A model generated the notes under the pieces. It had not been told where the DNA came from. It worked only from the letters and a program-made list of their open reading frames with translations, and searched no databases. This document shows, piece after piece, positions 254 through 51,606 of a stretch of 54,134 nucleotides of DNA. The DNA comes from a virus (Duplodnaviria; Caudoviricetes): positions 1 to 54,134 of IMG/VR virus record IMGVR_UViG_3300046707_000080; one strand, given 5' to 3'. Every line of letters starts with the position of its first letter. The stretch's first letter is position 1. The position numbers were made by a program, and so were the translations under genes.

Positions 254-2699
254 TTACACTAATATTTTTGGTGGTGCTGTCATCAGTACTTCCAATACCT
301 CTGGGATAGAATTAGCCTTAACCGGAAACATCACGTTGAGCTGGCCAACCCAGTTCCAGGATGTAAATACCACTGTCAATAGCATCATGGATGTCACGGC
401 AAGTGGTGTATTTAACATTACAATGCCAGATGCTACTCAGGCCAGCACTTTCCAGACTATATTATTCAATAACGTAGGAGGTGTTAATACCTTTCATGTG
501 CTGAATAATGGAGGAGGAACGCTTTTAACATTAACCGCAGGACAATCTAGCTTGCTATGGTTATATGATAACTCTACGGTTAATGGTTCTTGGAGAACCT
601 CTCCTTTCGGAGCAGGGGGTCCAACGGTTACCTCTATTGCTGCAACTTCTTCTAGTACAGATTTAACAATCACGGGTTCCCCCATCACCTCTGCTGGAAC
701 GCTGACCTTTGGATTGGCTCAAGATTTAGCTTCTCTCACAGGATTTGTAAATTCAACAGGAATTGCCGCTCGTACAGCCGCCAATACTTGGGCATTAAGG
801 ACTCTTACAGGTACTGCTAATCAAATAGCCGTCACCAATGGGACTGGGGTTGCTGGAAATCCAACGCTTGCGCTTGCTGCAACCATTACGGGTATTACTT
901 CCCTTACCGCCGGGCATATAGTCATCAGTGCCAATACGATTGGTACTACGAATGCTGGAACCATTACATTAGGAGATGTCTTGGTTATACCAGAAATCTA
1001 TGGTGTTCAATTTGATGCGACGAACGGAACAAACTTCAATCTATTAGTCTCTGGGAATCAATCTTTCAATCAGAGCTATATATGGCCAACAACGGCCCCA
1101 ATTGGTGGGCAAGTACTACAGTATGGAGGAGCCTCTGCTCTTCAATGGGCTACCATCACCACATTCGGTGGTCCAAGCACAACGAACGCTATCGCCAAAT
1201 ATACTAACATTACCGGTAGTCTTGGAAACTCTGGTGTCTTGATAGATGCCTCCAATAATGTAACAGGAGTTAATTCTCTTGCAGCAGCGAACATTGATAT
1301 CGGGGTTTCTGGGGCAAATATATTATCCACAGTGACGGGCGTCTTAAGTATCATTCCCTCTGGTTCCAATAATGTTCAAATAGGGGTTGCTAGCGGTGTC
1401 CCCAATAATTTAATATTAATGAATGGTTCCGCCCTTATTTTAAATGAACCCGCCAGCTCTGGAACCAACTTCAGCTCGTTTATACAACCTGCATTAAGTT
1501 CTAACATAAATTACTCACTCCCTGTCATTGGTCCCGGGGTTGGTAATACTCTAAGAACCATCGGAACCGTAGCCTCTCCGATATTAGAATGGAGCGACTC
1601 AGTCGATAATCCTAACTTCCTAATCAATGGAAGTATGTCTGTTTGGCAACGAGGAACATCTTTTACAAACTCTACATTCTTTGTAAACAACAATAACGTT
1701 TATACCGCTGACTGTTGGAAGCTACAATCGAATGGAAATAATGTTGTCTCTGTCTCTCGTGATACAGGACCTATTAACTTAGTTGCTAGTTGTCCTTATT
1801 CCTGGAAAGCAACGGTTGTCGCTGCTAATACAAAGTTTGGAGTTGCTCAGTTTATTGAGTATAAAGATACGCAAAGTATTAATGGATTTGTTACATCGCT
1901 TGGATTTAGCGCTAAAGCCTCTGGTATTACAAACTTAAGAGCTTCCTTAATCCAATGGTCTGGAACAGCCGATGTGCCAACCAGTAATATTGTGAGTGCT
2001 TGGAATGGCTCTGGAACCAATCCAACATTGGCTGCTAATTGGACCTATGTTCCGTTGGCAACTGGCTCTCTGGTTAATATTCCCGTCACCACTTCTTTTG
2101 CTAATTACACTACCAATCCAGACGGCTTGCATTATTTTAGTATCCCAACCGGTGGCACTAATAATCTTGCTGTATTCATATGGGTTGACGATACAACAAT
2201 CGCTATGAATTCAACCTTGAATTTAAGTGCCCTTAAGTTAGAGCAGGGAGAATATTCTACTCGATTTATAGCATCCCTTTTCCCAGAAGAGTTAAGAAAT
2301 AGTAAGAGAATTTTCTTACAAGATTTACCGTATGGAACCTCAACAGGTACAGCAACCTTTCCAGCCACTCCCACAACCCCTGTTGTCGGAGAATCCGGTT
2401 GTTACTGGCCCGTGACAACTACCATTCTTACGGGAGTGGCCTATGCCCGCATTGATTTTGAGGTTGAGATGAGGACAACCCCTACGTTAGTTACTTATCC
2501 CTATACCACGACGACTAATACCAATAGATGGTCAGATAATACGGGTACTGATTTAGCGGCCTTATCTGCTTCAATCTATGCATTAGATAGTAAAGGGGCA
2601 TTGATTTATAACAACATAACAGCGGCAGGCACTATAACGACGGCTGGGAATAGTACCCTTATTGGACATTGGTATGCAGATTCAGGATTTAATTCATAA
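246..2699 (+). CDS. Tail fibre / receptor-binding protein, 817 aa
   Basis: Thr/Gly/Ser/Asn-rich beta-type sequence; NFLINGSMSVWQRG...LKLEQG module typical of phage fibres; last gene of the virion operon. Confidence 0.75.
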   Translation: MSNYTNIFGGAVISTSNTSGIELALTGNITLSWPTQFQDVNTTVNSIMDVTASGVFNITMPDATQASTFQTILFNNVGGVNTFHVLNNGGGTLLTLTAGQSSLLWLYDNSTVNGSWRTSPFGAGGPTVTSIAATSSSTDLTITGSPITSAGTLTFGLAQDLASLTGFVNSTGIAARTAANTWALRTLTGTANQIAVTNGTGVAGNPTLALAATITGITSLTAGHIVISANTIGTTNAGTITLGDVLVIPEIYGVQFDATNGTNFNLLVSGNQSFNQSYIWPTTAPIGGQVLQYGGASALQWATITTFGGPSTTNAIAKYTNITGSLGNSGVLIDASNNVTGVNSLAAANIDIGVSGANILSTVTGVLSIIPSGSNNVQIGVASGVPNNLILMNGSALILNEPASSGTNFSSFIQPALSSNINYSLPVIGPGVGNTLRTIGTVASPILEWSDSVDNPNFLINGSMSVWQRGTSFTNSTFFVNNNNVYTADCWKLQSNGNNVVSVSRDTGPINLVASCPYSWKATVVAANTKFGVAQFIEYKDTQSINGFVTSLGFSAKASGITNLRASLIQWSGTADVPTSNIVSAWNGSGTNPTLAANWTYVPLATGSLVNIPVTTSFANYTTNPDGLHYFSIPTGGTNNLAVFIWVDDTTIAMNSTLNLSALKLEQGEYSTRFIASLFPEELRNSKRIFLQDLPYGTSTGTATFPATPTTPVVGESGCYWPVTTTILTGVAYARIDFEVEMRTTPTLVTYPYTTTTNTNRWSDNTGTDLAALSASIYALDSKGALIYNNITAAGTITTAGNSTLIGHWYADSGFNS

Positions 2700-2712
2700 A
2701 GGATTTAAGGAC

Positions 2713-2928
2713 ATGTTAATTTTAAATAGATATGCAGGACAATCTATTACGATATATTTGGAAGATGGTCGTGAGATAGATATCAAGGTTTTAGATATTA
2801 TTGGTAAAAACAATAAGTTTGCAAAGATAGGGATTGATGCTGCGAAGAGTATCAAGATTATCAGAGATGAGCTTATTACACAAGAGATGCAAGATGATAT
2901 TTCCGTGCTTTCTGTTCTTTCTGGTTAA
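2713..2928 (+). CDS. csrA: Carbon storage regulator CsrA/RsmA homologue
   Basis: MLILNRYAGQSITI...IKVLDI...KIGIDAAKSIKIIRDEL matches the CsrA pattern MLILTRxxGExIxI...RIGIxAPxxVxIxREE; AAGGA RBS before ATG 2713. Confidence 0.9.
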   Translation: MLILNRYAGQSITIYLEDGREIDIKVLDIIGKNNKFAKIGIDAAKSIKIIRDELITQEMQDDISVLSVLSG

Positions 2929-7860: not shown

Positions 7861-8430
7861 TTAGAAACTATAGTTTAACCCAACTGAACCAAAACAGCTA
7901 TCATTGGGTTGTATACCATGAACATTGATATTGGATGTATGTTGATAGGTAAAGATTCCTCTCACCTTAGTATTCGTGAATATCGTATACTCAACTCCAC
8001 CCAAGAACCTAGGTACTGTCTTGCTAACCACTGTCTTACCCGCAGGTTGACTGTAGGTATACTTTAAGCGGGAAAGTCCAGCTCCTCCGATTAGATTTAA
8101 ATTTGTATCTAATGGATAAGTCCCAATAGCAGTGACATGAAATCCACTGGTCTTAAACGCATTTCCAGCTAATCTTTTAGGCTTTTGAAGCAGGGTACCA
8201 ACTTCTCCTGAAAAATATTGATTAAACTTCACTCCACCATATATATTTGCAGCGGGTAAGAATTGACTTTGTTTAACCACCTCTGTTTGAATCTTAGGTT
8301 TCACTAGTTGCAACTGTGCATCTGCTCCGACATACGGACTAATAGAGGGCATAGAAAGTGCCAATATTTCAGATCCCGTAAACGTCACAATAGCCAATAA
8401 AACAATCTTTAATGAACTTAATAATTTCAT
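7861..8430 (-). CDS. Outer-membrane beta-barrel protein (OmpA-TM/Ail/Lom-like), moron
   Basis: Signal peptide, PYVGA, GGVKFNQYFSGEVG, GGVEY strands, C-terminal VGLNYSF BAM signal. Confidence 0.85.
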   Translation of the reverse strand: MKLLSSLKIVLLAIVTFTGSEILALSMPSISPYVGADAQLQLVKPKIQTEVVKQSQFLPAANIYGGVKFNQYFSGEVGTLLQKPKRLAGNAFKTSGFHVTAIGTYPLDTNLNLIGGAGLSRLKYTYSQPAGKTVVSKTVPRFLGGVEYTIFTNTKVRGIFTYQHTSNINVHGIQPNDSCFGSVGLNYSF

Positions 8431-8678
8431 CTGTATGACTCCTATAGGTAATATACACCCCGAGCATAACCTGACTATCGTCAGATTACAATACTTTTGT
8501 TATTTGATTTACTTATTATAGTACTATTTTTCCATCTCTTCAAACTTCTCTATCGCCTCTTCTAGCTTCCTAAATAACGAAGAATCCTTATTGGTTAGCT
8601 TCTCTAGATACCAAAGGATATCGGTCAGCTCTGCTTCTGTGAGCTCAACGTTTACTATGGGTTCTTTGATTACTTTCT

Positions 8679-8909
8679 TCATCTCATCATCAATCTATCG
8701 GTAAGCTCAAAGATTTCCTTTCGGACTTCCTCCACTACTTTCTTCTGCTCTTCCGTATAATCCTTATCTTCTAGCTTAACTAGGTATTCCCGTATCTCAT
8801 GGAGTGCCCCTACAAAGGCATCTATATCTAACGATTGAAGGACATGAATGACCCCATCATGGTAATCATTGTGGTCTAGCTCATACTTTACGGTTATCTC
8901 TTTAATCAT
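8679..8909 (-). CDS. Hypothetical protein
   Basis: Likely start MIKEIT at 8909; the longer call reads through the parS palindrome. Confidence 0.55.
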   Translation of the reverse strand: MIKEITVKYELDHNDYHDGVIHVLQSLDIDAFVGALHEIREYLVKLEDKDYTEEQKKVVEEVRKEIFELTDRLMMR

Positions 8910-8937
8910 GGGATATTGTTCCAGAAGGAAACTTCGA

Positions 8938-8953
8938 TGTTCCATGTGGAACA
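8938..8953. promoter_or_regulatory. parS-like ParB-binding palindrome
   Basis: TGTTCCATGTGGAACA, 15/16 to the chromosomal parS variant TGTTCCACGTGGAACA. Confidence 0.75.
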
Positions 8954-9575
8954 TTCATAGGGTAACTACTTAAACAATGAACTACTAATAAAGTTGAGAT
9001 AAGAACTATTACTGCTGACGCTAGTATTCCGACCCAGAATTCTTTTAGAAACTCAGACATTTTTACATGATACCTTGTCAAGGAATCCTTGACTACTCAA
9101 TCATTAAACAGACTTCACACATGAGTAATGTGCATATAAATATACACATAAGATATACACCAATAATAGATACTATTTTATCCATAGAGAATATATATCA
9201 CTTGCCCTAACACACATCAGTATACCAAGGAAGAATAGAGTACATACAACAGTGATAGCTACTAGTTCTTCATGACTTAAAGGCGGAAATATCCGCTTCG
9301 ATATCCTATACAATATCCTCTTGACCGCTGAAATCGCTAAAGCACCGGATAGAAAAGCTAATAAGAAGTTGTCTCCCCTCGCATTAGAAATGCAACCTAA
9401 TAGGATAGATAAGATTATTGAGAGGCCAGTAATGTAGGGGATAGCGTTTATTCTAGAAGTCCTCTCGTTAAATTAGTAATGAGTCCTATGATGCAAACTA
9501 CTAATAATATCTTCTCTGTTATAGACATAGCTCGCCAGAGTTCTTTATAGAAATCCATTCGGGTATATTCTTTTT

Positions 9576-9776
9576 TCATTTTAGCATCTCCAATAGAGTC
9601 TTTTCAGAAGGAAGAAGTATGAGGAATAATGATATTATTAATACCCAAAGTAATACAAACTTTGCATCCTTATTATTTTCATTTATATAAGCGATTAACC
9701 CTAATACACCAATAATAAAAAATACCCATAGAAAAACCTTAACTCCAAATATTATATCTATTAGGTAATTAATCAT
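9576..9776 (-). CDS. Small membrane protein
   Basis: Two TM helices; ends LEMLK like its upstream neighbour. Confidence 0.55.
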   Translation of the reverse strand: MINYLIDIIFGVKVFLWVFFIIGVLGLIAYINENNKDAKFVLLWVLIISLFLILLPSEKTLLEMLK

Positions 9777-15457: not shown

Positions 15458-17074
15458 ATGGAATCACTAAAAGACTTGGAAAGTCAACTATCGTCATATC
15501 GAGAAGCTCTGTTACCTATTTGGAAAGCAGAGGAGTCCCTACATGAGTTCGTAAAGCAAGCCTGGCATATCCTAGAACCTGAAACAGAATTCATTGATGG
15601 CTGGCATATAAAGGCTATCTGTGAGCATCTAGAAGCTATTACCTACGGTCTCATCCGTAACCTTATCATCAATGTTCCACCTCGTACGTGTAAATCCACT
15701 ATAGTATCAGTGATGTGGCCAGCTTGGTGGTGGATAATGGAGCCTCATAAACGATTCCTCTGTGCTTCTCACTCATATGATATATCCGGTCGTGATAGTC
15801 GCAACTGTCGCACGATAATTCAGTCAGATTGGTATCAGCGTAACTGGGGTCATGTCTTCAGTATCTCTGCTAAGGATAACAATAAGGATACAGAACACTT
15901 CTTTGAGAACAATTGTAGGGGCTATAGGAAGGCGGTCTCTGTTGGGTCTAAAGTAGCCGGTGTCGGCGCTGATGTCCTGATAGGAGACGATTTAAACGAT
16001 ATTAGCGAGGTATTCTCGGATACCATTAGGAATAAGACTAATCGATGGTATGGTTCAAGCTTTAGTACTCGTTTAAACAATCGTAAGACCGGCTCTAGGG
16101 TCATTATGATGCAACGTAGTCATGAGTTAGATGTAACGGGCTTCGTGCTCTCTAAGTACCCTGAGGAGTTTATAAAGCTTATCCTTCCCATGGAGTTTGA
16201 ACCGGATAATAAATGTAAGACTGTCATATTACCTTCAACGAATGATGCGGTATGGGAAGACCCTAGAACTAAGACCAATGAGCTTCTATGGCCTGAACAA
16301 GATGGTCCTAAAGAGGTGGAGCGACGGAAGAAGGACTTAGGGAGCGCTTATGATATAGCGGGTCAACTACAACAAAGACCTGCACCTGATGAAGGGGGTA
16401 TTATACGTAAGAAATCCTTTAAGTGGTGGATTAAACCAGAGCCGCCACAGATGACATTAGTCATCCAATCCTGGGATACAGCGCTCTCTAAAGACGATAT
16501 GGAGAAGAATAGCTTCCATGCCTGTACTACGTGGGGATTATTCACTGATGACAACCAGAGAACGAATCTGATGCTCTTAGGGATGTGGCGAGGACGATGT
16601 GAATATCCAGAGCTTAGAACAATGGTTAAAAGGCTCTCGTACGATTGGAGGGATGACGGAGTCGCCGATATTATTCCGGATGGTAAACATACGGCGGATA
16701 GGATAATCATTGAGGATAAAGCCTCTGGCTCACCTCTCGCTATGGATTTAACACGGATGGGATTAACAATAGAACGGTTTAACCCTACTAAGTATGGCGA
16801 TAAGATTGAAAGGGTAAGGTATGTGACCCATATTATAGAGAATGGTCAGGTATGGGTCAGAGCTATTCCACCGGATTATAAGAAGTTAAGATATTATGCT
16901 GAGAAGCATGTGGACTTATGTGCAGCTTTCCCTCATGCAGAGTCTAGGGATGTTGTAGATACAATGACACAAGCTATGTTACGATTGATGCAGAGTGGAT
17001 TGTTGAGGGATAAGTGGCAAGAGGTGAAGAAGACACAGAAGCGTCAATTTGCATTATATGGAGTAGATGAATGA
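15458..17074 (+). CDS. terL: Terminase large subunit
   Basis: INVPPRTCKST Walker A, LIGDD Walker B, QSWDTA and DVVDTMTQA nuclease motifs. Confidence 0.95.
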   Translation: MESLKDLESQLSSYREALLPIWKAEESLHEFVKQAWHILEPETEFIDGWHIKAICEHLEAITYGLIRNLIINVPPRTCKSTIVSVMWPAWWWIMEPHKRFLCASHSYDISGRDSRNCRTIIQSDWYQRNWGHVFSISAKDNNKDTEHFFENNCRGYRKAVSVGSKVAGVGADVLIGDDLNDISEVFSDTIRNKTNRWYGSSFSTRLNNRKTGSRVIMMQRSHELDVTGFVLSKYPEEFIKLILPMEFEPDNKCKTVILPSTNDAVWEDPRTKTNELLWPEQDGPKEVERRKKDLGSAYDIAGQLQQRPAPDEGGIIRKKSFKWWIKPEPPQMTLVIQSWDTALSKDDMEKNSFHACTTWGLFTDDNQRTNLMLLGMWRGRCEYPELRTMVKRLSYDWRDDGVADIIPDGKHTADRIIIEDKASGSPLAMDLTRMGLTIERFNPTKYGDKIERVRYVTHIIENGQVWVRAIPPDYKKLRYYAEKHVDLCAAFPHAESRDVVDTMTQAMLRLMQSGLLRDKWQEVKKTQKRQFALYGVDE

Positions 17075-17358
17075 CAGAAATCCCACAACATGCTATTGAA
17101 TCGCTCAAGAAATCCATGGCAAGAACACAGGTTATATTGTCAAATGGAATATTTAAGAATTCATTCTTTACTAGAAAATCCTTTATGAGGGAATTGAAGA
17201 GAAAGTTCTCAAGTAAGAGGAGTGGGTTTAAACATAGAACTATCATGAAGGAAAACCATAGAAGAATAAATGATATTTATACAAGGAATTGGCAAAAGAG
17301 TTTAAAAGGTTTCGATGATTGGAAAAAGACTTTGGATGAATATGGAGTAGATGAGTGA
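17071..17358 (+). CDS. Hypothetical basic protein
   Basis: GGAG RBS, ATGA coupling; ends YGVDE like terL. Confidence 0.55.
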   Translation: MTEIPQHAIESLKKSMARTQVILSNGIFKNSFFTRKSFMRELKRKFSSKRSGFKHRTIMKENHRRINDIYTRNWQKSLKGFDDWKKTLDEYGVDE

Positions 17359-17570
17359 GATTTAAAAAGCTTTTAGAATTCCTGAAAGTAAGATTAAATG
17401 ATAATCCAGAGTTATCAGATAAAGAAATAATATTGATTTGTTATAATAATAAAGATAATAGCATCATGTTTTCTGGGCTATTAGATACGGTATGCATTGG
17501 TACTGGAAATCATAATAAATATGGTAGAAATGAAGTAATTCAATTTATCCTAGAAGGAGTAGATGAATGA
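17355..17570 (+). CDS. Hypothetical protein
   Basis: GTGA coupling; ends GVDE. Confidence 0.55.
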   Translation: MRFKKLLEFLKVRLNDNPELSDKEIILICYNNKDNSIMFSGLLDTVCIGTGNHNKYGRNEVIQFILEGVDE

Positions 17571-21265: not shown

Positions 21266-21616
21266 ATGAAAAAAGACCATAAAGAGTTAATAGAGTTAAT
21301 GAAACCACTTGTAGATTTTCTATCTAAAAATTCAAAACGAGATACAATTCCAGAAGAAGATAGGCTAGCTTATCAATTATATGAGATGCTTTCTCTGGGG
21401 TCAAATATTGTACTGCATAATAGTGAAAATGTTTCACCTTCTTCTGTAGTGAAAGCATTATGTATTTTTATTTCATATATGAAAAGCTCTCTTGCTGATA
21501 ATCATGTTCCTAAAGAAGGACAGTTGATGTTTTTAGAAGCCATCAAAAGTCATGTTATACAACTGATTGAAGAGGAAAACCCTAATGCCAAAGAAATTCA
21601 AGATCCTATCCATTGA
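21266..21616 (+). CDS. Hypothetical protein
   Basis: GGGAG RBS. Confidence 0.6.
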   Translation: MKKDHKELIELMKPLVDFLSKNSKRDTIPEEDRLAYQLYEMLSLGSNIVLHNSENVSPSSVVKALCIFISYMKSSLADNHVPKEGQLMFLEAIKSHVIQLIEEENPNAKEIQDPIH

Positions 21617-22592
21617 CGGTGGTGGCGTCCGCGGCATAATCCCTGCACGTATCCTACAAGAGATAGAGGAGAAGGCAGGCAAGCCTATTTATCAGCTATT
21701 TGATATGATTGTAGGAACTTCTACGGGGGCGTTGATAGCGTTAGCCTTGACAAGACCGGTAAGTATCCCATTCATTGGATTTTTAGGAGATAATCTGGAT
21801 GAACATGATGTGCTCCCAACTCAAATTGTAACAAAAATATATACTGCTGATTCCAAGGAAATATTTAAAAAATCAGTTCTTCAAGATATTAAGTCAGGAT
21901 TCAATTTGTGGGGTCCAAAATATGACAGAAGTTCATATGATAAATTCTTATCAGAAACATTTGGTGATACTTTATTCAAAGACACAAAATGCAAAGTAGT
22001 TATCCCTTCCTATGATTTAATGAGGAACAAACGCATTATCTGTAAGTCATGGGAGAACTTCCAGAAATCTACCATGAAAGATATAGCAGGAGGAGCAACA
22101 GCCGCTCCTACGTATTTCTCGCCAGTAAATATACAAGAATTTTACTTAAATAGGGATGTTATTTCCGGTACAACTTATAACTATTCCCTCATAGACGGCG
22201 GTATCTGGGCTAATAATCCAGAACTTATCGGAGTTTATGAAGCTTTAGCTCTAAATCCAGAACTTAAGAAAGAAAATATCTATATTCTCTCCCTTGGTAC
22301 AGGCGATGTGCAACTTAAATCAGATGCTTCTAAGCTTCAAAATGCTGGCATCATTGATTGGCTTAAATCAGGCCTTATCAACATGATGATGGAAACTGAG
22401 TCCGAATGGACAGCGACTGCTATCAAAGAGATATATCCTAACATGGTTCGTATTGAGCCTTATCTGCCATCTACATTAGGCGCATTCGATGATGCTTCGG
22501 ATGAGAATCTAGAAGGATTGTTGAAGATAGCTGAGCGCTATATAGAGAATAATCCTAACGAGATTAAAGGGATAGTGGAGAGTTTAACATGA
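21585..22592 (+). CDS. Patatin-like phospholipase
   Basis: DGGGVRG oxyanion loop, GTSTG nucleophile, TAAAPTYF, IDGGIWANNP catalytic Asp, LSLGTG; all intact. Confidence 0.95.
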   Translation: MPKKFKILSIDGGGVRGIIPARILQEIEEKAGKPIYQLFDMIVGTSTGALIALALTRPVSIPFIGFLGDNLDEHDVLPTQIVTKIYTADSKEIFKKSVLQDIKSGFNLWGPKYDRSSYDKFLSETFGDTLFKDTKCKVVIPSYDLMRNKRIICKSWENFQKSTMKDIAGGATAAPTYFSPVNIQEFYLNRDVISGTTYNYSLIDGGIWANNPELIGVYEALALNPELKKENIYILSLGTGDVQLKSDASKLQNAGIIDWLKSGLINMMMETESEWTATAIKEIYPNMVRIEPYLPSTLGAFDDASDENLEGLLKIAERYIENNPNEIKGIVESLT

Positions 22593-22810
22593 GCGATACA
22601 GAAGAAAAGATATGCTTATTTTCTAAGGAATGGATTTTAGAACAAGTTAAAACTGAATGTAAAATAAATCCAGAATGTGAAATTGAAATTAAAAACATGC
22701 AAAATGAATTTGGCGAAATTATTCAGAGATTTCTTAAGCGCTATCACGAGAATGAGCGAGACACTAATAATGCAGAACAGATTAAAGGGATAGTAAAGAG
22801 TTTAATATGA
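22589..22810 (+). CDS. Small hypothetical protein
   Basis: ATGA coupling; 3' end duplicates the patatin 3' end. Confidence 0.5.
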   Translation: MSDTEEKICLFSKEWILEQVKTECKINPECEIEIKNMQNEFGEIIQRFLKRYHENERDTNNAEQIKGIVKSLI

Positions 22811-23264: not shown

Positions 23265-24203
23265 TTAATCCCTCTTTAACATATCAAACAATCTCTTAGC
23301 CGTCTCTTCCGCTATCCTGCGCTCATCTTCTCTCGTTAAAATTCTCTGACGTTTAAGCTCAGCATCATAATCACTACACATTAAATTTATGTTTTGCATT
23401 AAAGGGAGCAATGTATTATCTACATTAGCTAATAATGGCTCTAGATGCTTTGCTTTCTTTCCGTCTGGGTCTGACAATAATGGATGGTCTTGAAGGGTTT
23501 CTATTTCAGCTCTGCTAAATAATGATGCCCCTTCCTTACCAAACGATAGCTCCTTAAATGACCGAAGCTGTTCGTTATACTCATCCTGCTCAGCTTTGCG
23601 ATGCTCTATTGGCCTTTCGCACAGTATTAGATCTTTGTATAGATAATGTTCAATAGCTCGGACATTAGGATTTGGTGTCATGGTTGAAAAAGCCCAATAC
23701 TGGGACAATTCTGGATGTCTATTATCAGAAACACTTTTCCAATGAGTCCCTGGAAGCTGAAATGGTCCTATAGGCTCCAATTTATCGCCCACTACAGAAC
23801 CACGAGGACACAATTTCATTTGCTCTATCCAACAATACTCATATCCTTCTGGTGGAGTTAGTTTAAGCTGTAGTGGATTCTTTTCCTCTGGCATAAGTCG
23901 AGGAAATGCGTTTAGAGTTTCTTGCGAAAACGGAACAATTGGATCTGAATTATAATCTTTGATAAATTCCGTTCTCAATTCTCCATATGTTTTACCATTA
24001 AAAATATTCTCGTCAAGTTCTTGTTCTTCTACTATGAGATGAATATTCCCGGTTCCATCTTGTGCCATTTCAATATCTTCTATCTCAAAAAATTCCTCAA
24101 TATTTATATCACTGGCTTTGATATGAACAAGAACCTTATTGTCTCCTAAATGGTCACTGATACTTCCACGTACAAGTTGCGCTATCAATTCATCTAAAGT
24201 CAT
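23265..24203 (-). CDS. Fusion-like protein containing a domain paralogous to 32655..33185
   Basis: PPEGYEYCWI...HWKSVSDNRHPEL...KDLILCERP. Confidence 0.65.
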   Translation of the reverse strand: MTLDELIAQLVRGSISDHLGDNKVLVHIKASDINIEEFFEIEDIEMAQDGTGNIHLIVEEQELDENIFNGKTYGELRTEFIKDYNSDPIVPFSQETLNAFPRLMPEEKNPLQLKLTPPEGYEYCWIEQMKLCPRGSVVGDKLEPIGPFQLPGTHWKSVSDNRHPELSQYWAFSTMTPNPNVRAIEHYLYKDLILCERPIEHRKAEQDEYNEQLRSFKELSFGKEGASLFSRAEIETLQDHPLLSDPDGKKAKHLEPLLANVDNTLLPLMQNINLMCSDYDAELKRQRILTREDERRIAEETAKRLFDMLKRD

Positions 24204-25449: not shown

Positions 25450-26313
25450 TTACGTACTCCCCTCTCGCACTGCATCCACATTGCTTTCGTTTAACCTGAC
25501 GCAATCAATTGCGTTCTTGATAAGGCTTAGATGCTTCTTAGCGACTTGTGTCGTTTTCTTAGCATCTGGCCTAAAGGTTCTGAGCGTAGCGACTTCTGTT
25601 TCCCCAATTGTAGGGATAGGATAATCATCCTTCTTTACTCTTGCCATATCATTGCCTCCTATAACGCTTGCCCTTTTCATGAGCATGACTTGCAAATAGC
25701 CGCCAGGATTAGTGACATTCTTTTGCTTGTTCATTAACTCAAGCTCGTGCACTATCTTATCATATCCTAATCTATTTAACCATCCTATGGTGTTCTTCTT
25801 ATAAAACCCTATGGTGCTTAGTTGCTCTATCAGAGCTTGTTCCTGTTCGTTAATCTTCACTTCATCATAATCATGATCATTGATTTGTATTAATGATCTA
25901 TTAGGGGGCACAGAGCTAGTAGCCCCCCCTGTCACCTGGCTAGTAGCCCCCCCTATCTGAGATAAGTTATCAACAGACTTATCCACATGGTTATCCACAA
26001 CCTTTGGGGATAACTTGTGACTACACTGAATCATATCTAGATTGATTCGATATTCCGTCGCTTCATGGTTTGCAAAATCAGCATCTTTTACTTTAATTAG
26101 ATAACCTAATTTTTTAAGAGCTTGAGTAGATCGAATTGCTTGGCTATTACAACATCCCAGATCTTTGGCTACTGTACTCATGCTAGGGAATACATTAGTT
26201 CCATCTTCTGTTGCATAGCTTGCTAACACCATCAATGTACATTTTTGATGGCAAGATAACTTATCATTTAGACTGCGATCCGATAGGATCCTTTTCATTA
26301 ATAAAAAACTCAT
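25450..26313 (-). CDS. HTH replication initiator (replisome organiser-like)
   Basis: LMVLASYA...VFPSMSTVAKDLG...LKKLGYL winged HTH, internal repeats, C-terminal NPGGYL. Confidence 0.8.
   Translation of the reverse strand: MSFLLMKRILSDRSLNDKLSCHQKCTLMVLASYATEDGTNVFPSMSTVAKDLGCCNSQAIRSTQALKKLGYLIKVKDADFANHEATEYRINLDMIQCSHKLSPKVVDNHVDKSVDNLSQIGGATSQVTGGATSSVPPNRSLIQINDHDYDEVKINEQEQALIEQLSTIGFYKKNTIGWLNRLGYDKIVHELELMNKQKNVTNPGGYLQVMLMKRASVIGGNDMARVKKDDYPIPTIGETEVATLRTFRPDAKKTTQVAKKHLSLIKNAIDCVRLNESNVDAVREGST
25915..26013. promoter_or_regulatory. Putative replication origin: two iterons plus DnaA-box cluster
   Basis: GCTAGTAGCCCCCCCT at 25915 and 25939; TTATCAACA 25967, TTATCCACA 25979 and 25991, inverted TTATCCCCA 26005-26013. 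Confidence 0.75.
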
Positions 26314-27062: not shown

Positions 27063-29570
27063 GTGTTTCTAGATACAAGGATCGTTTGGGTGGCTGTTTC
27101 CCCATTTAATACATTTGAACCTCAAATGCCCGGGATGCAACCGGAAGGGCAAGGTTTACCCTTTGATTTACCACCTTTCAATCCAGAAGAAGCTCAAGCA
27201 GAAGCGCCTCCTGAACAACCAGAAGATTTCCACGCCAATCTAGCGGAGGCCATGGATAGCGGTACGCTATCAGGTCTTGCCGCAAGACTCTTAGAGAATA
27301 TAGAGAATGATGATAACGCCAGATCTGACTGGCTAAAAACGATTAACCTAGCCATGAAATATCTTGGCTGGAAAGTAGATGAATATAAAAGTATCCCGTT
27401 CTCTTATGCCTGCTCAGCTTACGATACCTCTCTCTCTATAGCCCTTATCAGCTCCTACTCCACTGTCTATGCAGAACTCTTTCCCGCTGCGGGTCCTACT
27501 CGCTCTGAGATTATTGGAATGCCAACTCAGGAAGTAGAAGACCAGGGGGATAGAGTCAAAATGTTCATGAATAACTTTTTGACGAACATTAACCGAGATT
27601 ACTATCCAGACTCTAAAGGATTAGTGCTTTATACCATCTTTTGTGGGAGTGGATTTAGAAAGGTGTATCAAGACCCTATTCTGAACCAACCTGAAGCCAA
27701 GTTCATTAAGCCCCAAGATTTTATCGTTAATCCTAATACGACAAGCCTCATGTCTGCCGATAGGATGGCTCATAAAGTCTATTACTCCCGTAAGGATGTC
27801 ATTCTTCGTCAGATGAACGGAGATTTCTTAGAAGATACGTTGCCTGCCATCATTGAAGAAAATCAGATGGATAAGAAGACGCTGACTAAGACTATTCAAC
27901 ATATTGATGGGGTTAATCCAGAATCCACTGAGAACAAGAACTTATTCACGTTCTATGAAGTCCATGCGGATTTAACGGATAAGGATATTAGTTCGGGTCG
28001 AATGAGCGGGACGGATGAAGGGGATGAATTACCGAAACCTTATATTTTAATGATTTGCGAATCAACCAAGAACATTGTCTCTATAAGAAGAAATTGGAAA
28101 GAAGGAGACGCTATATATAAGCGCAAGGAATATTTTGTCGCTTATATGTATTTACCCGGTTTTGGCATTTATGGAACAGGATTGGCCCATTTAATGGGGT
28201 CGAATGCCATAGTCTTAAGCAATGTCTTAAGGCAACTTATGGACGCAGGGACGCTCAAGAATTTCCCAGGGGGACTGCAGGTCGCTGGGTTGAAGATTGA
28301 GACGAACGATATTGCGATAGGCCCCAGTGAATTTAGGGAGATAGAGACTGGTGGATTGCCTATTCAGCAATGCGTAATGCTCATGCCGTATGCGGAGCCA
28401 TCCACGGTATTGATGCAGCTTAGAACGGACTTAATGCAGCAAAGTGCCAAAAATGGAATGGCCGCTGACAATCAAATCCCTGAAAGCAATATGAATGCCC
28501 CAGTTGGGACAACGTTAGCGTTATTGGAAGTCGCTAATCGTGCCCAATCGACGGTGTTGCGGTCTTTCAGGAATTCATTAAGTCATGAACTCAAGCTCTT
28601 GTTTGATTTGTTTGGAGAGCATCTCGAAGACAGGCCTTATCTCTTTGCAGTTCCAGGGAAGGAGACTGCGATTATGAGGAAGGATTTCAATAATAGGATA
28701 AGTATTGTACCTGTTTCAGATCCAAACGTCTTAACAAGCACACATCGCTTATTGCGCGCAGAAGGTATCTATAAGATAGCCGGAGCCGCTCCTCAGTTGT
28801 ATAACCAACGTGAGGTTAATAAGCTGATGTTACATGCGATGAACGTTGACAATATTGATAAGTTATTAAAGCCGGAACCACAACCGGCCATGCTGGATGC
28901 GATAACGGAGAATATGTACGTTCTGCAAGGAAAACCTGTATTGGTCAATGTGCAACAAGATGACGATGCTCATATTCAATTGCACACTGCGTTTGCCCTG
29001 GAGATGAAGCAAGCGAATCCAGTAGCTTATGCGGCTATTATGGAGCATAACCAAGTCCATAAAGCCGCAAAAGTTGCAAAAATGTTAATTCAAAACCAAG
29101 TAAAACAACAAGTTCAACAACAAATGCAACAAAACCCCATGATGCATCCCATGTTCGCAGAACAGATGTCGAAACAGATTCACGATCAGGCCATGCAAAA
29201 GTTCTCTCAAATGCCAGTCCAGCAATTACTGATGGATATGCAAATACAAAATATGGTTGCCAAGATGGACGCTGAGGAATTAGCGAAACAGCAACAACAA
29301 CAGCAACAAATGATGAAACAACAACAGGAAGTTCAGCAGGTACCGAACAAGATAATGATGGAAGACATTAAACAAAGACAAGAAGCGGCTCATCTTAAGA
29401 ATGATGAGACGAAGTTAAAGGTTGAAGAAGATGCTTTCAAAGCGCAATTGCATTTTGAGAGTGAGAAAGCGAAATTGGAAGCGCAAAAAGACATGGCTAC
29501 TGACAAACATTTAGTTGATTTAGCCATAGCAGAAATGAAACAGCATCCTAATCCTACAGCGAGGTATTAA
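27063..29570 (+). CDS. Portal protein with Gln/Met-rich C-terminal extension
   Basis: FHANLAE, ELFPAAGP, GSGFRKVYQDP, YLPGFGIYGTG, APVGTTLALLE, PVSDPN motifs of podovirus portals; exact start uncertain. Confidence 0.88.
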   Translation: MFLDTRIVWVAVSPFNTFEPQMPGMQPEGQGLPFDLPPFNPEEAQAEAPPEQPEDFHANLAEAMDSGTLSGLAARLLENIENDDNARSDWLKTINLAMKYLGWKVDEYKSIPFSYACSAYDTSLSIALISSYSTVYAELFPAAGPTRSEIIGMPTQEVEDQGDRVKMFMNNFLTNINRDYYPDSKGLVLYTIFCGSGFRKVYQDPILNQPEAKFIKPQDFIVNPNTTSLMSADRMAHKVYYSRKDVILRQMNGDFLEDTLPAIIEENQMDKKTLTKTIQHIDGVNPESTENKNLFTFYEVHADLTDKDISSGRMSGTDEGDELPKPYILMICESTKNIVSIRRNWKEGDAIYKRKEYFVAYMYLPGFGIYGTGLAHLMGSNAIVLSNVLRQLMDAGTLKNFPGGLQVAGLKIETNDIAIGPSEFREIETGGLPIQQCVMLMPYAEPSTVLMQLRTDLMQQSAKNGMAADNQIPESNMNAPVGTTLALLEVANRAQSTVLRSFRNSLSHELKLLFDLFGEHLEDRPYLFAVPGKETAIMRKDFNNRISIVPVSDPNVLTSTHRLLRAEGIYKIAGAAPQLYNQREVNKLMLHAMNVDNIDKLLKPEPQPAMLDAITENMYVLQGKPVLVNVQQDDDAHIQLHTAFALEMKQANPVAYAAIMEHNQVHKAAKVAKMLIQNQVKQQVQQQMQQNPMMHPMFAEQMSKQIHDQAMQKFSQMPVQQLLMDMQIQNMVAKMDAEELAKQQQQQQQMMKQQQEVQQVPNKIMMEDIKQRQEAAHLKNDETKLKVEEDAFKAQLHFESEKAKLEAQKDMATDKHLVDLAIAEMKQHPNPTARY

Positions 29571-43872: not shown

Positions 43873-44517
43873 ATGGTAATGACATATAACTCGTTAGTTC
43901 AGCAGGTTCAAGATGAGCTTGATAGATACGATACGCTATTTGTATCCTACATTCCTAATTTGATTTATCAAGCAACAGACCGAATCAATGCCGATTTAAA
44001 AAATATTGGATTGGAACAATATGTCACCGGTACTTTTATTGCTAATGCTATTAACGGGGGTTCTGTTATTCCAAAGCCTGCTAGATGGAGAAGAACCATA
44101 ACTTTTAATTATGGAACAGGTGTTGGAAATAATGTTGTCACTCCCATACTGCTTAGAACGTATGAGTTTTGTCGTAATTATTCACCGAATGCATCCGTAT
44201 CAGCCCCACCCCTTTATTATGCAGATTATGGGTTTTACAACTATTTAATTGTGCCAACACCAGACCAGGCTTATCCATTTGAATTGGCCTATTTAGAAGT
44301 CCCGGAGACTATCACAGCGAATGTTCAAACCAACTGGATTACGAACTATGCACCGAGTCTTTATTTGTATGCAGTGTTATTAGAGGCGGTTATTTATTTG
44401 AACTTTCCAGAGCGTATCCCTTCAATGCAAGCTGAATACGAGAAACGATTGGCTCCATTAGCGGCTCAAGACCAGGAAAGAAAGCTCGACCGCGAAACCA
44501 GTATAAGGGCGGATTAG
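43873..44517 (+). CDS. Tail adaptor (tubular protein A-like)
   Basis: MTYNSL...PxYYA...PTPD..Y..EL.Y...TNWI...AP..YLYA.L.EA. Confidence 0.7.
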   Translation: MVMTYNSLVQQVQDELDRYDTLFVSYIPNLIYQATDRINADLKNIGLEQYVTGTFIANAINGGSVIPKPARWRRTITFNYGTGVGNNVVTPILLRTYEFCRNYSPNASVSAPPLYYADYGFYNYLIVPTPDQAYPFELAYLEVPETITANVQTNWITNYAPSLYLYAVLLEAVIYLNFPERIPSMQAEYEKRLAPLAAQDQERKLDRETSIRAD

Positions 44518-44518
44518 T

Positions 44519-46054
44519 ATGTCGACTCCTCAAGATAAAGTCTTTGCTCTTCACTTCGCCCCTGGGATACAGAGGGATGGTACGGGATTTTCCAGTCAAT
44601 ATTGGACGGATGGACAATGGGTTCGGTTCTGGGCAGATGGTAGTGGGGTCCCAAAACCAAGGAAAATGGGAGGATATGCTCAGTTAACAACGATTGATAA
44701 TATTGCTCGTGGTAGCTATGTTCAGCCTAATCCGCCTAATTTTAATGTTTATATTGGTGACCAGGATGAGTTGTTTTATATCCCGATAGATCAGTTCGGA
44801 ACCGCCCTCGGTCCAGAAGTGGGCAGAACTCCTGCCTTATATATCCCTAATGTCAATAATGATTGGCAGTTTGATACCATGTATTCAACCATTAATAATT
44901 CCAGCATATTAGTAGCTTTTGCTGCCCCAAATCTCGCTTCTGTTGCAAGCAATGTGGATGCAGCAGTTTATTACGGAGATTCTCTTGCTAATACGCCTCT
45001 CATTCCAACCGGATTTAATGTATCAGGGGGTATAGTCGTATTGTCTCCATTTTTAGTGATGTATGGAAATGATGGGAATATTATAGTATCGAATCCTAAC
45101 GATCCAACCACTGAATTCTTCACCGCCAGAGTCACAAACTCTAAAATTGTCTTTGGATTGCCAGTTAGAGCCGGTAACTCAAGCCCCGCCGGTCTATTTT
45201 GGAGCTTAGATAGCCTTATCCGTATGACTTTCGTGGGGGGAACTGAGATATTCAATTTTGATACCGTAACCGCAGAAAGCTCTATTCTCTCTAGCAGAGG
45301 AATTATTGAATACGATAATGAATACTTTTGGGCAGGGATTGATCGATTCTTATTTTATAATGGTGTGGTTCAAGAATTACCCAATGATAAATCCTTAGAC
45401 TTTTTCTTTGCAAATGTGAATTATGCACAACGTCAAAAAGTATGGGCAACAAAAGTAACGAGCGCTGGTGAGATTTGGTGGTTTTTCCCAACCGGTAATA
45501 ACGTAGAGTGCAATCATGCGGTTATCTATAATAGACGTCTTAAGTGTTGGTATGACACAGCGATTAATAGAAGTGATGGTTATTTTGACCAAACCTTTGC
45601 AAGTCCTATCTGGACCGATAATGTGGCATCAGGGGGTGAATATCCTGTTTGGATCCACGAAACCGGTGTAGACCAAAACGTCGGAAACGTCCTAACCGCC
45701 ATCGATTCCTTCATTCAAAGCGGAGATATCGCCTATTGCGCTAATGGCCCCGGCGGTCAACGCATCGGCCTTGATAGATGGGTCTATCTGACCCGAGTCG
45801 AACCCGACTTCCTCCAAGATGAGAACTTAACTTTAACAGTGACAGGCCGAGATTATGCAATCTCAAATCCCGCTGTTTCTACTCAGAATCCCTATGTAAT
45901 TACACCTACAACAGTCAAGGTAGATATGAGAGAGCAGGCTCGAGAGATGAGGCTTAAGTTTGAGAGTAATGCCATTGGTGGCGATTACTTTATGGGACAA
46001 GTGCTTTTGGTAGCAAGGATTGGGGATGGTAGACAAAGTGGTACAAGTCCTTAG
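44519..46054 (+). CDS. Tail nozzle (tubular protein B / P22 gp10-like)
   Basis: PGIQRDGT, WVRF, KMGGY, EIWWFFP, RVEPDF; beta-propeller-like composition. Confidence 0.72.
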   Translation: MSTPQDKVFALHFAPGIQRDGTGFSSQYWTDGQWVRFWADGSGVPKPRKMGGYAQLTTIDNIARGSYVQPNPPNFNVYIGDQDELFYIPIDQFGTALGPEVGRTPALYIPNVNNDWQFDTMYSTINNSSILVAFAAPNLASVASNVDAAVYYGDSLANTPLIPTGFNVSGGIVVLSPFLVMYGNDGNIIVSNPNDPTTEFFTARVTNSKIVFGLPVRAGNSSPAGLFWSLDSLIRMTFVGGTEIFNFDTVTAESSILSSRGIIEYDNEYFWAGIDRFLFYNGVVQELPNDKSLDFFFANVNYAQRQKVWATKVTSAGEIWWFFPTGNNVECNHAVIYNRRLKCWYDTAINRSDGYFDQTFASPIWTDNVASGGEYPVWIHETGVDQNVGNVLTAIDSFIQSGDIAYCANGPGGQRIGLDRWVYLTRVEPDFLQDENLTLTVTGRDYAISNPAVSTQNPYVITPTTVKVDMREQAREMRLKFESNAIGGDYFMGQVLLVARIGDGRQSGTSP

Positions 46055-50389: not shown

Positions 50390-51606
50390 TGACACCTGCT
50401 CAAGAAATGATGAGACAAATGTTAATGCAGCAGCAACAGCAGCTTCAGCAGAACCCTATTAACCAAGGAACCTTACAAGGGATGCAAGCGGCTAAACAAT
50501 CTATTCAGATGGATGAAATGGATAAGAATAGAGCCATGGGTCTTGGAATGTTTAACATGGGAACTCATCTGGGTAACCAAAATCTTAAGTTTGGTGAACG
50601 TCCTCGGGATGCATTCCAATTAATATCGCATGCGCTTCCTCATGGTGTAGAAGCTTATCTAGGAGAAGAGGATAGAGCTAAAAATCTGAATGCCACCTTA
50701 TTGGCTCGTCAAATGGAACAGCAAGAGCGTAAAAGAAGAGAGGAATTAAGGCTTGCTCAAATGGGTTATAAAATGGAACGTGAACAGACCAAGGAAGCTC
50801 AAGATAAGGCTTATAAAAAGCGATATCTCGATATTATGGCGGGTAGAGCTGGATTAAATGAAGGTGCACAGGAAGCGCCTCAACGTATGGTAGAGTTTAA
50901 TGATAAGAAGATAGACTTGAGTAAATATTCTCCTATTGAGACGCCTGCTCAATTAAATGCCTATTCCAAGGAATCAAGAGTTTGGGGTCAGGTAGTTAAA
51001 GACATGAAAAGTATTAAAAAAGACTTAGATAAGATGGAGAAAATGACAGAGAAAAATATTTTTGCGCCTTATGGTTCTGTTTTTAAAGAATTACCCAATA
51101 TTGGTAAAGATTACGTATCAAGATTGGCAGGGCCTGAGACAGAAAATGAAAAACTTCAAGATATTAATAAAGAAGTCACCTTAAGAGGAGATTTAATCTC
51201 TAAGTTTACATCCTTAGAGCCTATCTTAGAGAGAGCATCAAAAGGGGGTGTTCCTGATGCGCAGATGTTGGCAAGATTTAAAGATTTACGTGTTTATTTA
51301 TCTAAAGATGAACCTATAGACAGATTGCAATATAGATTAAAAAGGCTATTGGAAGATGCTGAAGATAGAGAATTATCCTCTAAAGCCTCTCTTAAATTTA
51401 AACATGAAATTGATTCTCTTAAAGGCGGAGAAGGGAAAGAAGCAGCAGAAGAAGCTATCGATATGGATTCATTGATAAACAATTTACGTTCTCGATCTCC
51501 AACCTTTGCAAAAATGTCTGATGAAGAGGCTAGAAAATGGATTGAGCAGGGTAATTATGACAAAACCCATCAGTTAATGAGAATTTCTGAAGGATCTGCT
51601 AAATGA
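50386..51606 (+). CDS. Putative ejection protein
   Basis: Helical, charged; position in the ejection gene block. Confidence 0.55.
   Translation: MMTPAQEMMRQMLMQQQQQLQQNPINQGTLQGMQAAKQSIQMDEMDKNRAMGLGMFNMGTHLGNQNLKFGERPRDAFQLISHALPHGVEAYLGEEDRAKNLNATLLARQMEQQERKRREELRLAQMGYKMEREQTKEAQDKAYKKRYLDIMAGRAGLNEGAQEAPQRMVEFNDKKIDLSKYSPIETPAQLNAYSKESRVWGQVVKDMKSIKKDLDKMEKMTEKNIFAPYGSVFKELPNIGKDYVSRLAGPETENEKLQDINKEVTLRGDLISKFTSLEPILERASKGGVPDAQMLARFKDLRVYLSKDEPIDRLQYRLKRLLEDAEDRELSSKASLKFKHEIDSLKGGEGKEAAEEAIDMDSLINNLRSRSPTFAKMSDEEARKWIEQGNYDKTHQLMRISEGSAK

Follow-up and report, generated by a model that had tools for sequence, protein, structure and literature searches.

The carriage of a chromosomal-type centromere site by a phage that has no ParB of its own is already known from Bacillus phage phi29. 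Its five parS sites, together with the Spo0J of the host, are described to help trap the phage genome in the spore (PMC2731898, in the accessible part of that report). Among the literature found, phi29 is the only phage that was studied experimentally for the borrowing of host ParB, and no description of an orphan chromosomal parS as a general phage feature was found in the limited collection that was searched. Borrowing of a cis site has also been described for SGI1, a mobile element without its own partition proteins. SGI1 carries parS mimics that hijack the ParABS system of the IncC plasmid, and both binding and stabilisation were demonstrated according to the accessible part of the report (PMC10954446). 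P1, N15 and the cyanophage Mic1 (PMC7156551) encode their own ParA and ParB and use element-specific sites. Regarding the chromosomal sites, TGTTCCACGTGGAACA is listed as the parS of P. putida and P. aeruginosa, and that of M. xanthus ends in G; the half-parS GTTCCAC is occupied by ParB in vivo (PMC7022226, from the portion of the text at hand). In P. aeruginosa, sites with two mismatches are reported to be unbound in vivo and not to support segregation, and the available text of that study covers two-mismatch and not one-mismatch sites (PMC5098823).

The DNA analysed here (the window) is a whole IMG/VR virus entry of 54,134 bp. It is of the direct-terminal-repeat class and its CheckV completeness is 100, in agreement with the earlier description of a complete genome. 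Searches of 88 ORFs against PHROGs and Pfam indicated a podovirus-like phage, whose main genes are listed in Table 1. Further matches were to ejection-protein-like genes, RecT, RusA and several HTH regulators. The cultured phages closest by terminase are Roseobacter CRP-901 and CRP-902 (39%) and Pelagibacter HTVC023P (31%), and the TerL matches on genome contigs were distant, in Planctomycetota MAGs at 34–40% identity. The same sequence is contained in soil and rhizosphere metagenome runs. AGGAG-type ribosome-binding sites precede many genes, and the OmpA-like barrel protein was placed among Pseudomonadota-like porins by the Atlas. The host is probably a Gram-negative user of Shine-Dalgarno sequences from soil or rhizosphere.

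Table 1. Positions of the parS-like site and of other features in the window.
Feature	Position	Strand	Remarks
CsrA homologue	2662-2928		Host-like cargo
OmpA/Lom-like 8-stranded beta-barrel gene	7861-8430	-	Host-like cargo, downstream of the 76-aa gene
52-aa ORF	8524-8682	-	Start codon overlaps the 76-aa gene's stop codon (ATGA); part of the same transcription unit
Conserved 76-aa gene	8679-8909	-	ATG 8909; start 28 nt downstream of the parS-like site
Probable untranslated leader holding the parS-like site	8910-9060	-	
Imperfect second copy, TGTTCCAGAAGGAAACTTC	8917-8935		21 bp from the site; 74% to 8938-8956
parS-like 16-mer, TGTTCCATGTGGAACA	8938-8953		Both 7-bp arms perfect, centre TG in place of CG
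Perfect 17-bp palindrome, GTCAAGGAATCCTTGAC	9077-9093		Candidate operator
Large terminase	15458-17074		PHROGs/Pfam
Patatin-like phospholipase, close to CBASS CapV	21567-22592	+	NCBIfam E = 8.5e-55; host-like cargo
Replication initiator gene	25450-26313	-	PHROGs/Pfam
Four DnaA-box-like 9-mers, ~12 bp apart	25967-26013		Inside the initiator gene
Portal	27063-29570		PHROGs/Pfam
SU10-type adaptor	43873-44517		PHROGs/Pfam

The original prediction was of a site one base away from a chromosomal parS variant, ahead of the probable start of a small gene, and such a site is indeed present. It matches TGTTCCACGTGGAACA at 15 of 16 positions, with C8 replaced by T, although this consensus is of the Pseudomonas/Myxococcus type and may not be that of the host of this phage. 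On the minus strand, one half of the site is a perfect half-parS, GTTCCAC, and the other half agrees at 6 of 7 positions. Together with its flanks, the site forms an 18-bp near-palindrome (8937-8954). No other match to TGTTCCACGTGGAACA with up to three mismatches exists in the window, nor any other match to TGTTNCACGTGNAACA with up to two. At least one match with up to three mismatches appeared in 11 of 100 dinucleotide shuffles. A site within one mismatch of TGTTNCACGTGNAACA was produced at least once by 0 of 400 Markov genomes of order 1, by 3 of 400 of order 3 and by 4 of 400 of order 5, where the order-5 chain retains the strong GTTCCA excess of this genome. This corresponds to a chance of about 1% per genome, with no correction made for the many motifs open to a reader. 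The site is improbable by chance, even at order 5.

The palindrome itself is less distinctive. If arms of 7 bp and spacers of up to 4 are allowed, the window has 29 palindromes versus 21.7 ± 5.0 in shuffles; a palindrome of such quality, as such, is ordinary in this genome. The half-parS is not enriched in the window either (GTTCCAC, 6 versus 3.7 expected; GTTTCAC, 4 versus 4.7). The hexamer GTTCCA/TGGAAC has 61 copies versus 23.7 expected, a 2.6-fold excess that was reached by 0 of 100 shuffles, and the heptad TGTTCCA has 23 copies in the genome versus 7.2 expected. Because most of the copies sit in structural genes, the GTTCCA excess is probably a codon-pair effect. As a separate observation, the 35 bases of 8920-8954, and no others, are matched by a contig in a soil run (X5) that comes from a different, high-GC organism. 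Its flanks to the left and right of the match are unrelated, and it may represent a bacterial parS region.

Comparison with the described systems gives likenesses and differences. Like phi29, this is a ParB-less phage with a candidate chromosomal-type parS, here with one mismatch. Unlike phi29, for which five sites, a Gram-positive spore-forming host and a use in spore entrapment are described in the accessible account, it has one imperfect site at up to three mismatches and probably a Gram-negative host. The phage would thus be a candidate for a further member of the phi29-type class of host-ParB exploiters, and the case is less clear-cut because the site is single and imperfect. With SGI1, as far as its available description goes, the phage shares the lack of its own partition proteins and, as a candidate, the borrowed cis site. 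SGI1 is helped by a small protein of its own, Sci, and here too a small gene adjoins the site. On the other hand, SGI1 is an integrative element with a mimic of a plasmid parS, whereas the present site is of the chromosomal type and is carried by a phage. When set against the chromosomal parS of Pseudomonas and Myxococcus, TGTTCCACGTGGAAC(A/G), the site has 15 of 16 positions and one complete half-site in common. Those sites lie near oriC, whereas this one is phage-borne, in single copy and changed from CG to TG at the centre. Finally, P1, N15 and Mic1 differ by their own ParA and ParB, neither of which is encoded in this genome. What could be shared with them in theory is the extrachromosomal upkeep of a phage genome through a centromere site.

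The absence of partition and integration genes was examined at two levels. No ParA, ParB or recombinase was found by Pfam and PHROGs on the 88 ORFs, and NCBIfam gave no ParA or ParB. A six-frame HMM search returned 0 matches at E ≤ 1 to ParB_N, Phage_integrase, AAA_31, Resolvase, rve, CbiA or StbA_N, and thus no ParA, ParB, integrase, resolvase or transposase. In the same search, control genomes gave matches for every family, with ParB_N in 11 of 14 and StbA_N in only 1 of 14, below the family cut-off. The original statement that ParA, ParB and recombinases are lacking is therefore upheld at the HMM level, and the cryptic integrase or partition gene that would speak against the borrowing of host functions did not appear in the six frames at this threshold. 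By HMM, the genome has neither the ParA and ParB pair of a phage-plasmid of the P1/N15 type nor the integrase, recombinase or transposase of an integrative temperate phage. Several ORFs of 165–312 aa are without family assignment, and a very divergent recombinase may be among them. The 312-aa ORF (23265-24203, minus strand) has two homologues besides its own record, no sequence match in the PDB and a model with a pLDDT of 40.9.

The position of the site relative to the small gene depends on where this gene starts. An ORF of 91 aa (8679-8954, minus strand) begins at ATG 8954, inside the palindrome. This start was rejected, because the homologues begin at MIKEITV. There are five homologues in the database, namely that of the window and four at 67–74% identity, and four of the five begin with MIKEITVKYEL, which corresponds to ATG 8909. 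A more distant homologue, P0008, is likewise called from the same start (MIKEITV/MIKEVTV). The site is therefore upstream of the gene, as had been predicted, with the start at ATG 8909 and not at ATG 8954. The family is tiny (5–6 members). The 76-aa protein has no match in Pfam, PHROG or NCBIfam, including any DNA-binding family, and no usable match in the Atlas. A profile search with it returned two family members and one spurious repeat protein only. Its AF2 model is weak (pLDDT 62.8) and consists of a beta-hairpin and two helices, with no recognisable DNA-binding fold.

The only other ORF over the site is a membrane-like one of 52 aa (9060-8902, minus strand), which is open across it. It was considered as a gene in which the 21-bp repeat would be a peptide repeat (VPHGTS/FPSGTI) and was rejected, as it has no homologue and is absent from the called genes of the record. 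Given the gene start at 8909 and the lack of homologues of this ORF, the site is placed in the leader, outside the conserved coding sequence, and the DNA around it is probably non-coding. An RNA element at the site is unlikely, since the predicted folding of the leader does not exceed that of shuffled sequences (z = –0.27) and no Rfam match below E = 0.98 was obtained. The imperfect second copy supplies a third TGTTCCA heptad. A weak promoter is predicted on the minus strand (TAGTCA 9095-9090, TATCAT 9072-9067), and the perfect 17-bp palindrome overlaps its –35 element and its spacer. In the same region, 9093-9579 on the minus strand is a run of very short hydrophobic ORFs of 30–46 aa, and about 540 nt between 9447 and 8910 are without a convincing gene.

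Conservation of the site was judged in the relatives of the small gene and in the relatives of the phage. In P0004, which is 67% identical, the protein is called with the extension MFHVEHYHFASL before MIKEITV, where the window reads MFHMEHRSFLLEQYP. The first six residues of the extension, MFH(M/V)EH, are the palindrome read in frame (MFHVEH in P0004), and the replacement of M by V is the one difference by which the centre of the window's site becomes CG, compatible with the perfect consensus. By back-translation, 13 of 16 positions in P0004 are fixed and fit parS, and positions 8, 11 and 14 are uncertain through wobble. One of these uncertain positions is the free N of the consensus (C or T only), and the second CAY is constrained to CA by position 16. 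From the palindrome to the start, the sequence of P0004 is unrelated to that of the window and three residues shorter. As the MFHVEH reading is shared amid such intervening residues, the protein suggests that the palindrome, and not the surrounding leader, has been kept in P0004. The second copy seems not to be kept there, again as judged from the protein. This conservation evidence is from P0004 only, the three other relatives at 67–74% and P0008 being called from MIKEITV/MIKEVTV. A megablast of the window against phage records gave no match, nor did a scan of viral contigs with the 76-aa protein, and P0001 was not found in the records of five relatives. A single metagenome-contig match of the 76-aa protein was rejected as spurious, because it lies inside a hydantoinase-like gene.

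Five relatives found by terminase were also scanned. The closest of them, G001, has TGTTCCACGTGGCACA (locus L014, 1501-1516) within the orthologue of the structural gene 44519-46054 of the window, where it encodes NVPRGT. The window reads NIARGS at the same place, and therefore this site is not shared. Fifty further relatives contained 15 sites with up to two mismatches, in 9 records, versus 8 control sites; two of the sites had at most one mismatch. The parS-like sites of G015 and G022 lie inside genes. Among the relatives that are at least 90% complete, 2 of 14 (G001 and G032) have a site with at most one mismatch, both at other places. As to the conservation that the original prediction looked for in related phages, the site seems to be kept in P0004, whose extension implies the palindrome, and the more distant relatives do not share it. 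The parS-like site is not a clade-wide feature.

A wider pattern was seen in the collection. Exact scans of IMG/VR were carried out, with two composition-matched palindromes as controls. The perfect site TGTTCCACGTGGAACA occurs in at least 121 stretches of viral contigs and the TG-centre variant of the window in at least 125. The reversed palindrome occurs in 3 stretches and the arm-swapped palindrome with the same CACGTG core in 10, so that the perfect parS is at least 12–40 times commoner than the two controls. A scan for the two arms with any centre gave a sample of 122 sites, which correspond to 100 flank clusters. The centre is CG in 53 of these clusters and CA/TG, the class of the window, in 22, which makes it the second commonest. 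The remaining clusters have AA/TT (7), AG/CT, GA/TC and AC/GT (4 each), TA (3), GC (2) and CC/GG (1), and none has AT. The binomial p value is 7e-37 for the CG centre and 3e-8 for CA/TG among the non-CG centres, and sites with a TG/CA centre outnumber every other non-palindromic class about fivefold. Because the centres GC, TA and AT are rare, the excess is specific to the parS centre and does not reflect a general excess of palindromes.

The perfect sites (n = 101) and the TG-centre sites (n = 81) also have flank preferences in common. The two bases before the site tend to be A (–1 and –2), C being rare at –1, and the site tends to be followed by T or A (+1) and then by T (+2). The flanks in the window agree at –1 (A) and at +1 and +2 (TT). 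A stop-free frame of at least 450 nt runs over the site in 15 of 50 cases with CG and in 5 of 21 with TG/CA, versus 15 of 24 with other centres (Fisher p = 0.011 and 0.016, respectively). Among 50 viral records that carry the perfect site, ParB_N is encoded in 2, and in 0 of the 7 that are at least 90% complete. Sites of this class, which comprises the perfect parS and the TG-centre form present in the window, are thus strongly over-represented in viral contigs, most of which are ParB-less. A tyrosine integrase was found in 0 of 50 parS-bearing viral records and in 0 of 31 control records (of 39), and with the same zero in the controls this comparison is uninformative on parS carriers. No perfect or TG-centre viral locus was related to the locus studied here (best tblastn E = 0.03; no tblastx match). 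Carriers with two sites were also seen among the loci L111-L480, namely L129, L166 and L186, and one contig combines the perfect L159 with the TG-centre L266.

We consider that the site is probably of parS lineage and may still dock host ParB, perhaps weakly, and we assign to this reading a probability of roughly 0.5. The palindrome would be a genuine chromosomal-type parS by descent, which the phage lineage would keep as a cis site upstream of a small conserved early gene, and a ParB dimer of the host would dock on it. In this phage, one CpG-to-TpG transition would have left one half-site perfect and the other at 6 of 7. Binding of ParB should persist, although it would probably be weakened, and clamp loading and spreading may be reduced. 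The phage could benefit if its DNA were segregated or positioned while it is carried as an unintegrated prophage or in a carrier state; local repression is another possible benefit. Partition is one possible use of host ParB among several, and the use described for phi29 is spore entrapment (PMC2731898, in its accessible part). Against docking, it was counted that the site is single and imperfect at core position 8, that GTTCCA is generally over-represented, that the putative origin is about 17 kb away and that the site is not a feature of the clade.

The site may instead be a relic, in a lineage that once used a perfect parS and in which the central CpG-to-TpG transition inactivated this copy. 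We regard this as unlikely. A CpG transition is the commonest kind of mutation, and decay predicts just such a predominance of TG/CA among the non-consensus centres as was counted in the viral contigs (22 of 100 clusters versus 4 for AG/CT and 1 for CC/GG, the transversion neighbours of CG). Besides, a single site is present in the genome, and the two-mismatch sites of P. aeruginosa are dead in vivo in the available account (PMC5098823). The excess of TG centres by itself fits tolerated weak sites as well as recent CpG decay of perfect sites. Yet the TG-centre sites are not visibly eroding, as they keep the flank signature and the non-coding bias of the perfect sites. In the window, moreover, neither 7-bp arm has a mismatch and one half-site is complete; occupancy of half-sites in vivo is described in the portion of the source at hand (PMC7022226). 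That the palindrome has no function and no parS ancestry at all is very improbable in our view. The abundance of palindromes with 7-bp arms (29) and the 2.6-fold over-representation of GTTCCA would make such an accident easier, as would the many motifs scanned for by the earlier reader, and the sites of G001, G015 and G022, in coding sequence and at unrelated places, look like codon accidents. Chance is opposed by the rate of about 1% per genome even with the hexamer content retained, by the same six-residue reading of the palindrome beside unrelated flanks in the 67% relative, and by the roughly fivefold excess of TG/CA centres over each other non-palindromic class in viral contigs.

The neighbourhood of the site suggests another explanation, in which it is the operator of a phage-encoded regulator, possibly of an autoregulating 76-aa protein, and its likeness to parS is coincidental. 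The distance of 28 nt to the gene start, the three TGTTCCA heptads and the two imperfect palindromes 21 bp apart are in line with an operator. The site also travels with the gene in P0004, as seen from the protein, and the second perfect palindrome, 125 bp upstream, overlaps a predicted promoter. This explanation would nevertheless leave to a coincidence of about 1% a parS match of 15 of 16, which in the relative is likely to be complete at 16 of 16. P0004 does not seem to retain the second repeat, the genome has no other copy of the site, and the 76-aa protein has neither a match to a DNA-binding family nor a firm model (pLDDT 62.8). We therefore hold the operator to be quite improbable, and docking of host ParB on a site of parS lineage remains our preferred reading.

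The original prediction combined the site with DnaA boxes in the initiator gene, and a cluster of this kind was confirmed there. It is composed of TTATCAACA, two copies of the perfect TTATCCACA and an inverted TTATCCCCA, that is, two perfect and two one-mismatch boxes, and the whole genome has four perfect DnaA boxes. From its sequence, the cluster is a plausible putative origin, and the 9-mers may act as DnaA boxes or else as iterons for the initiator of the phage. Read-derived contigs from four runs were identical, of low depth and without variants or joints; they are silent on integration and on an episome. The barrel gene is preceded by a predicted promoter of its own (8543-8515, TTGAAG-17-TATAAT) and followed by a strong predicted terminator (7829-7806), a layout that appears typical of a moron expressed from a resident phage. 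The patatin-like phospholipase scored 186 bits against the NCBIfam model of CapV (cGAMP-activated lipase), below the cut-off of 200, and no full-size cyclase gene was seen adjoining it. Cargo such as the moron-like barrel gene, CsrA and the CapV-like lipase would suit a phage that resides for a time in living cells. The proposed lifestyle of a mini-chromosome mimic is possible.

A broader proposition is put forward tentatively, as one that is possible but doubtful. Orphan chromosomal-type parS, including the weakened TG-centre form, may be widespread and selected in ParB-less phages of many hosts, and this podovirus may ride dividing cells unintegrated through host ParB and perhaps DnaA. If host ParB loads on the site, 16 bp would buy access to the segregation and condensin-loading machinery of the host. 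This would explain how a phage with temperate-looking cargo and without integrase or partition genes could persist in growing cells. The counts across the collection suggest that the borrowing of host ParB is common among phages, most of the carriers being without ParB. The TG-centre class would also offer a direct test of the sequence degeneracy that ParB loading tolerates.

Two minor observations concern other parts of the record. At its ends, frames are open at 2-253 and at 51603-54134 on the plus strand and a PHROG tail-fibre match covers 246-2699; the terminal repeat may stem from a circular or permuted assembly. Small neighbouring ORFs have near-identical upstream sequences in two places. 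At 17050-17570 the upstream and ribosome sites before 17071, 17355 and 17567 read …GGAGTAGATGA, and at 22567-22810 the sequence before 22589 and 22807 is AAGGGATAGT..AGAGTTTAA. These near-identical upstream sequences suggest tandem paralogues.
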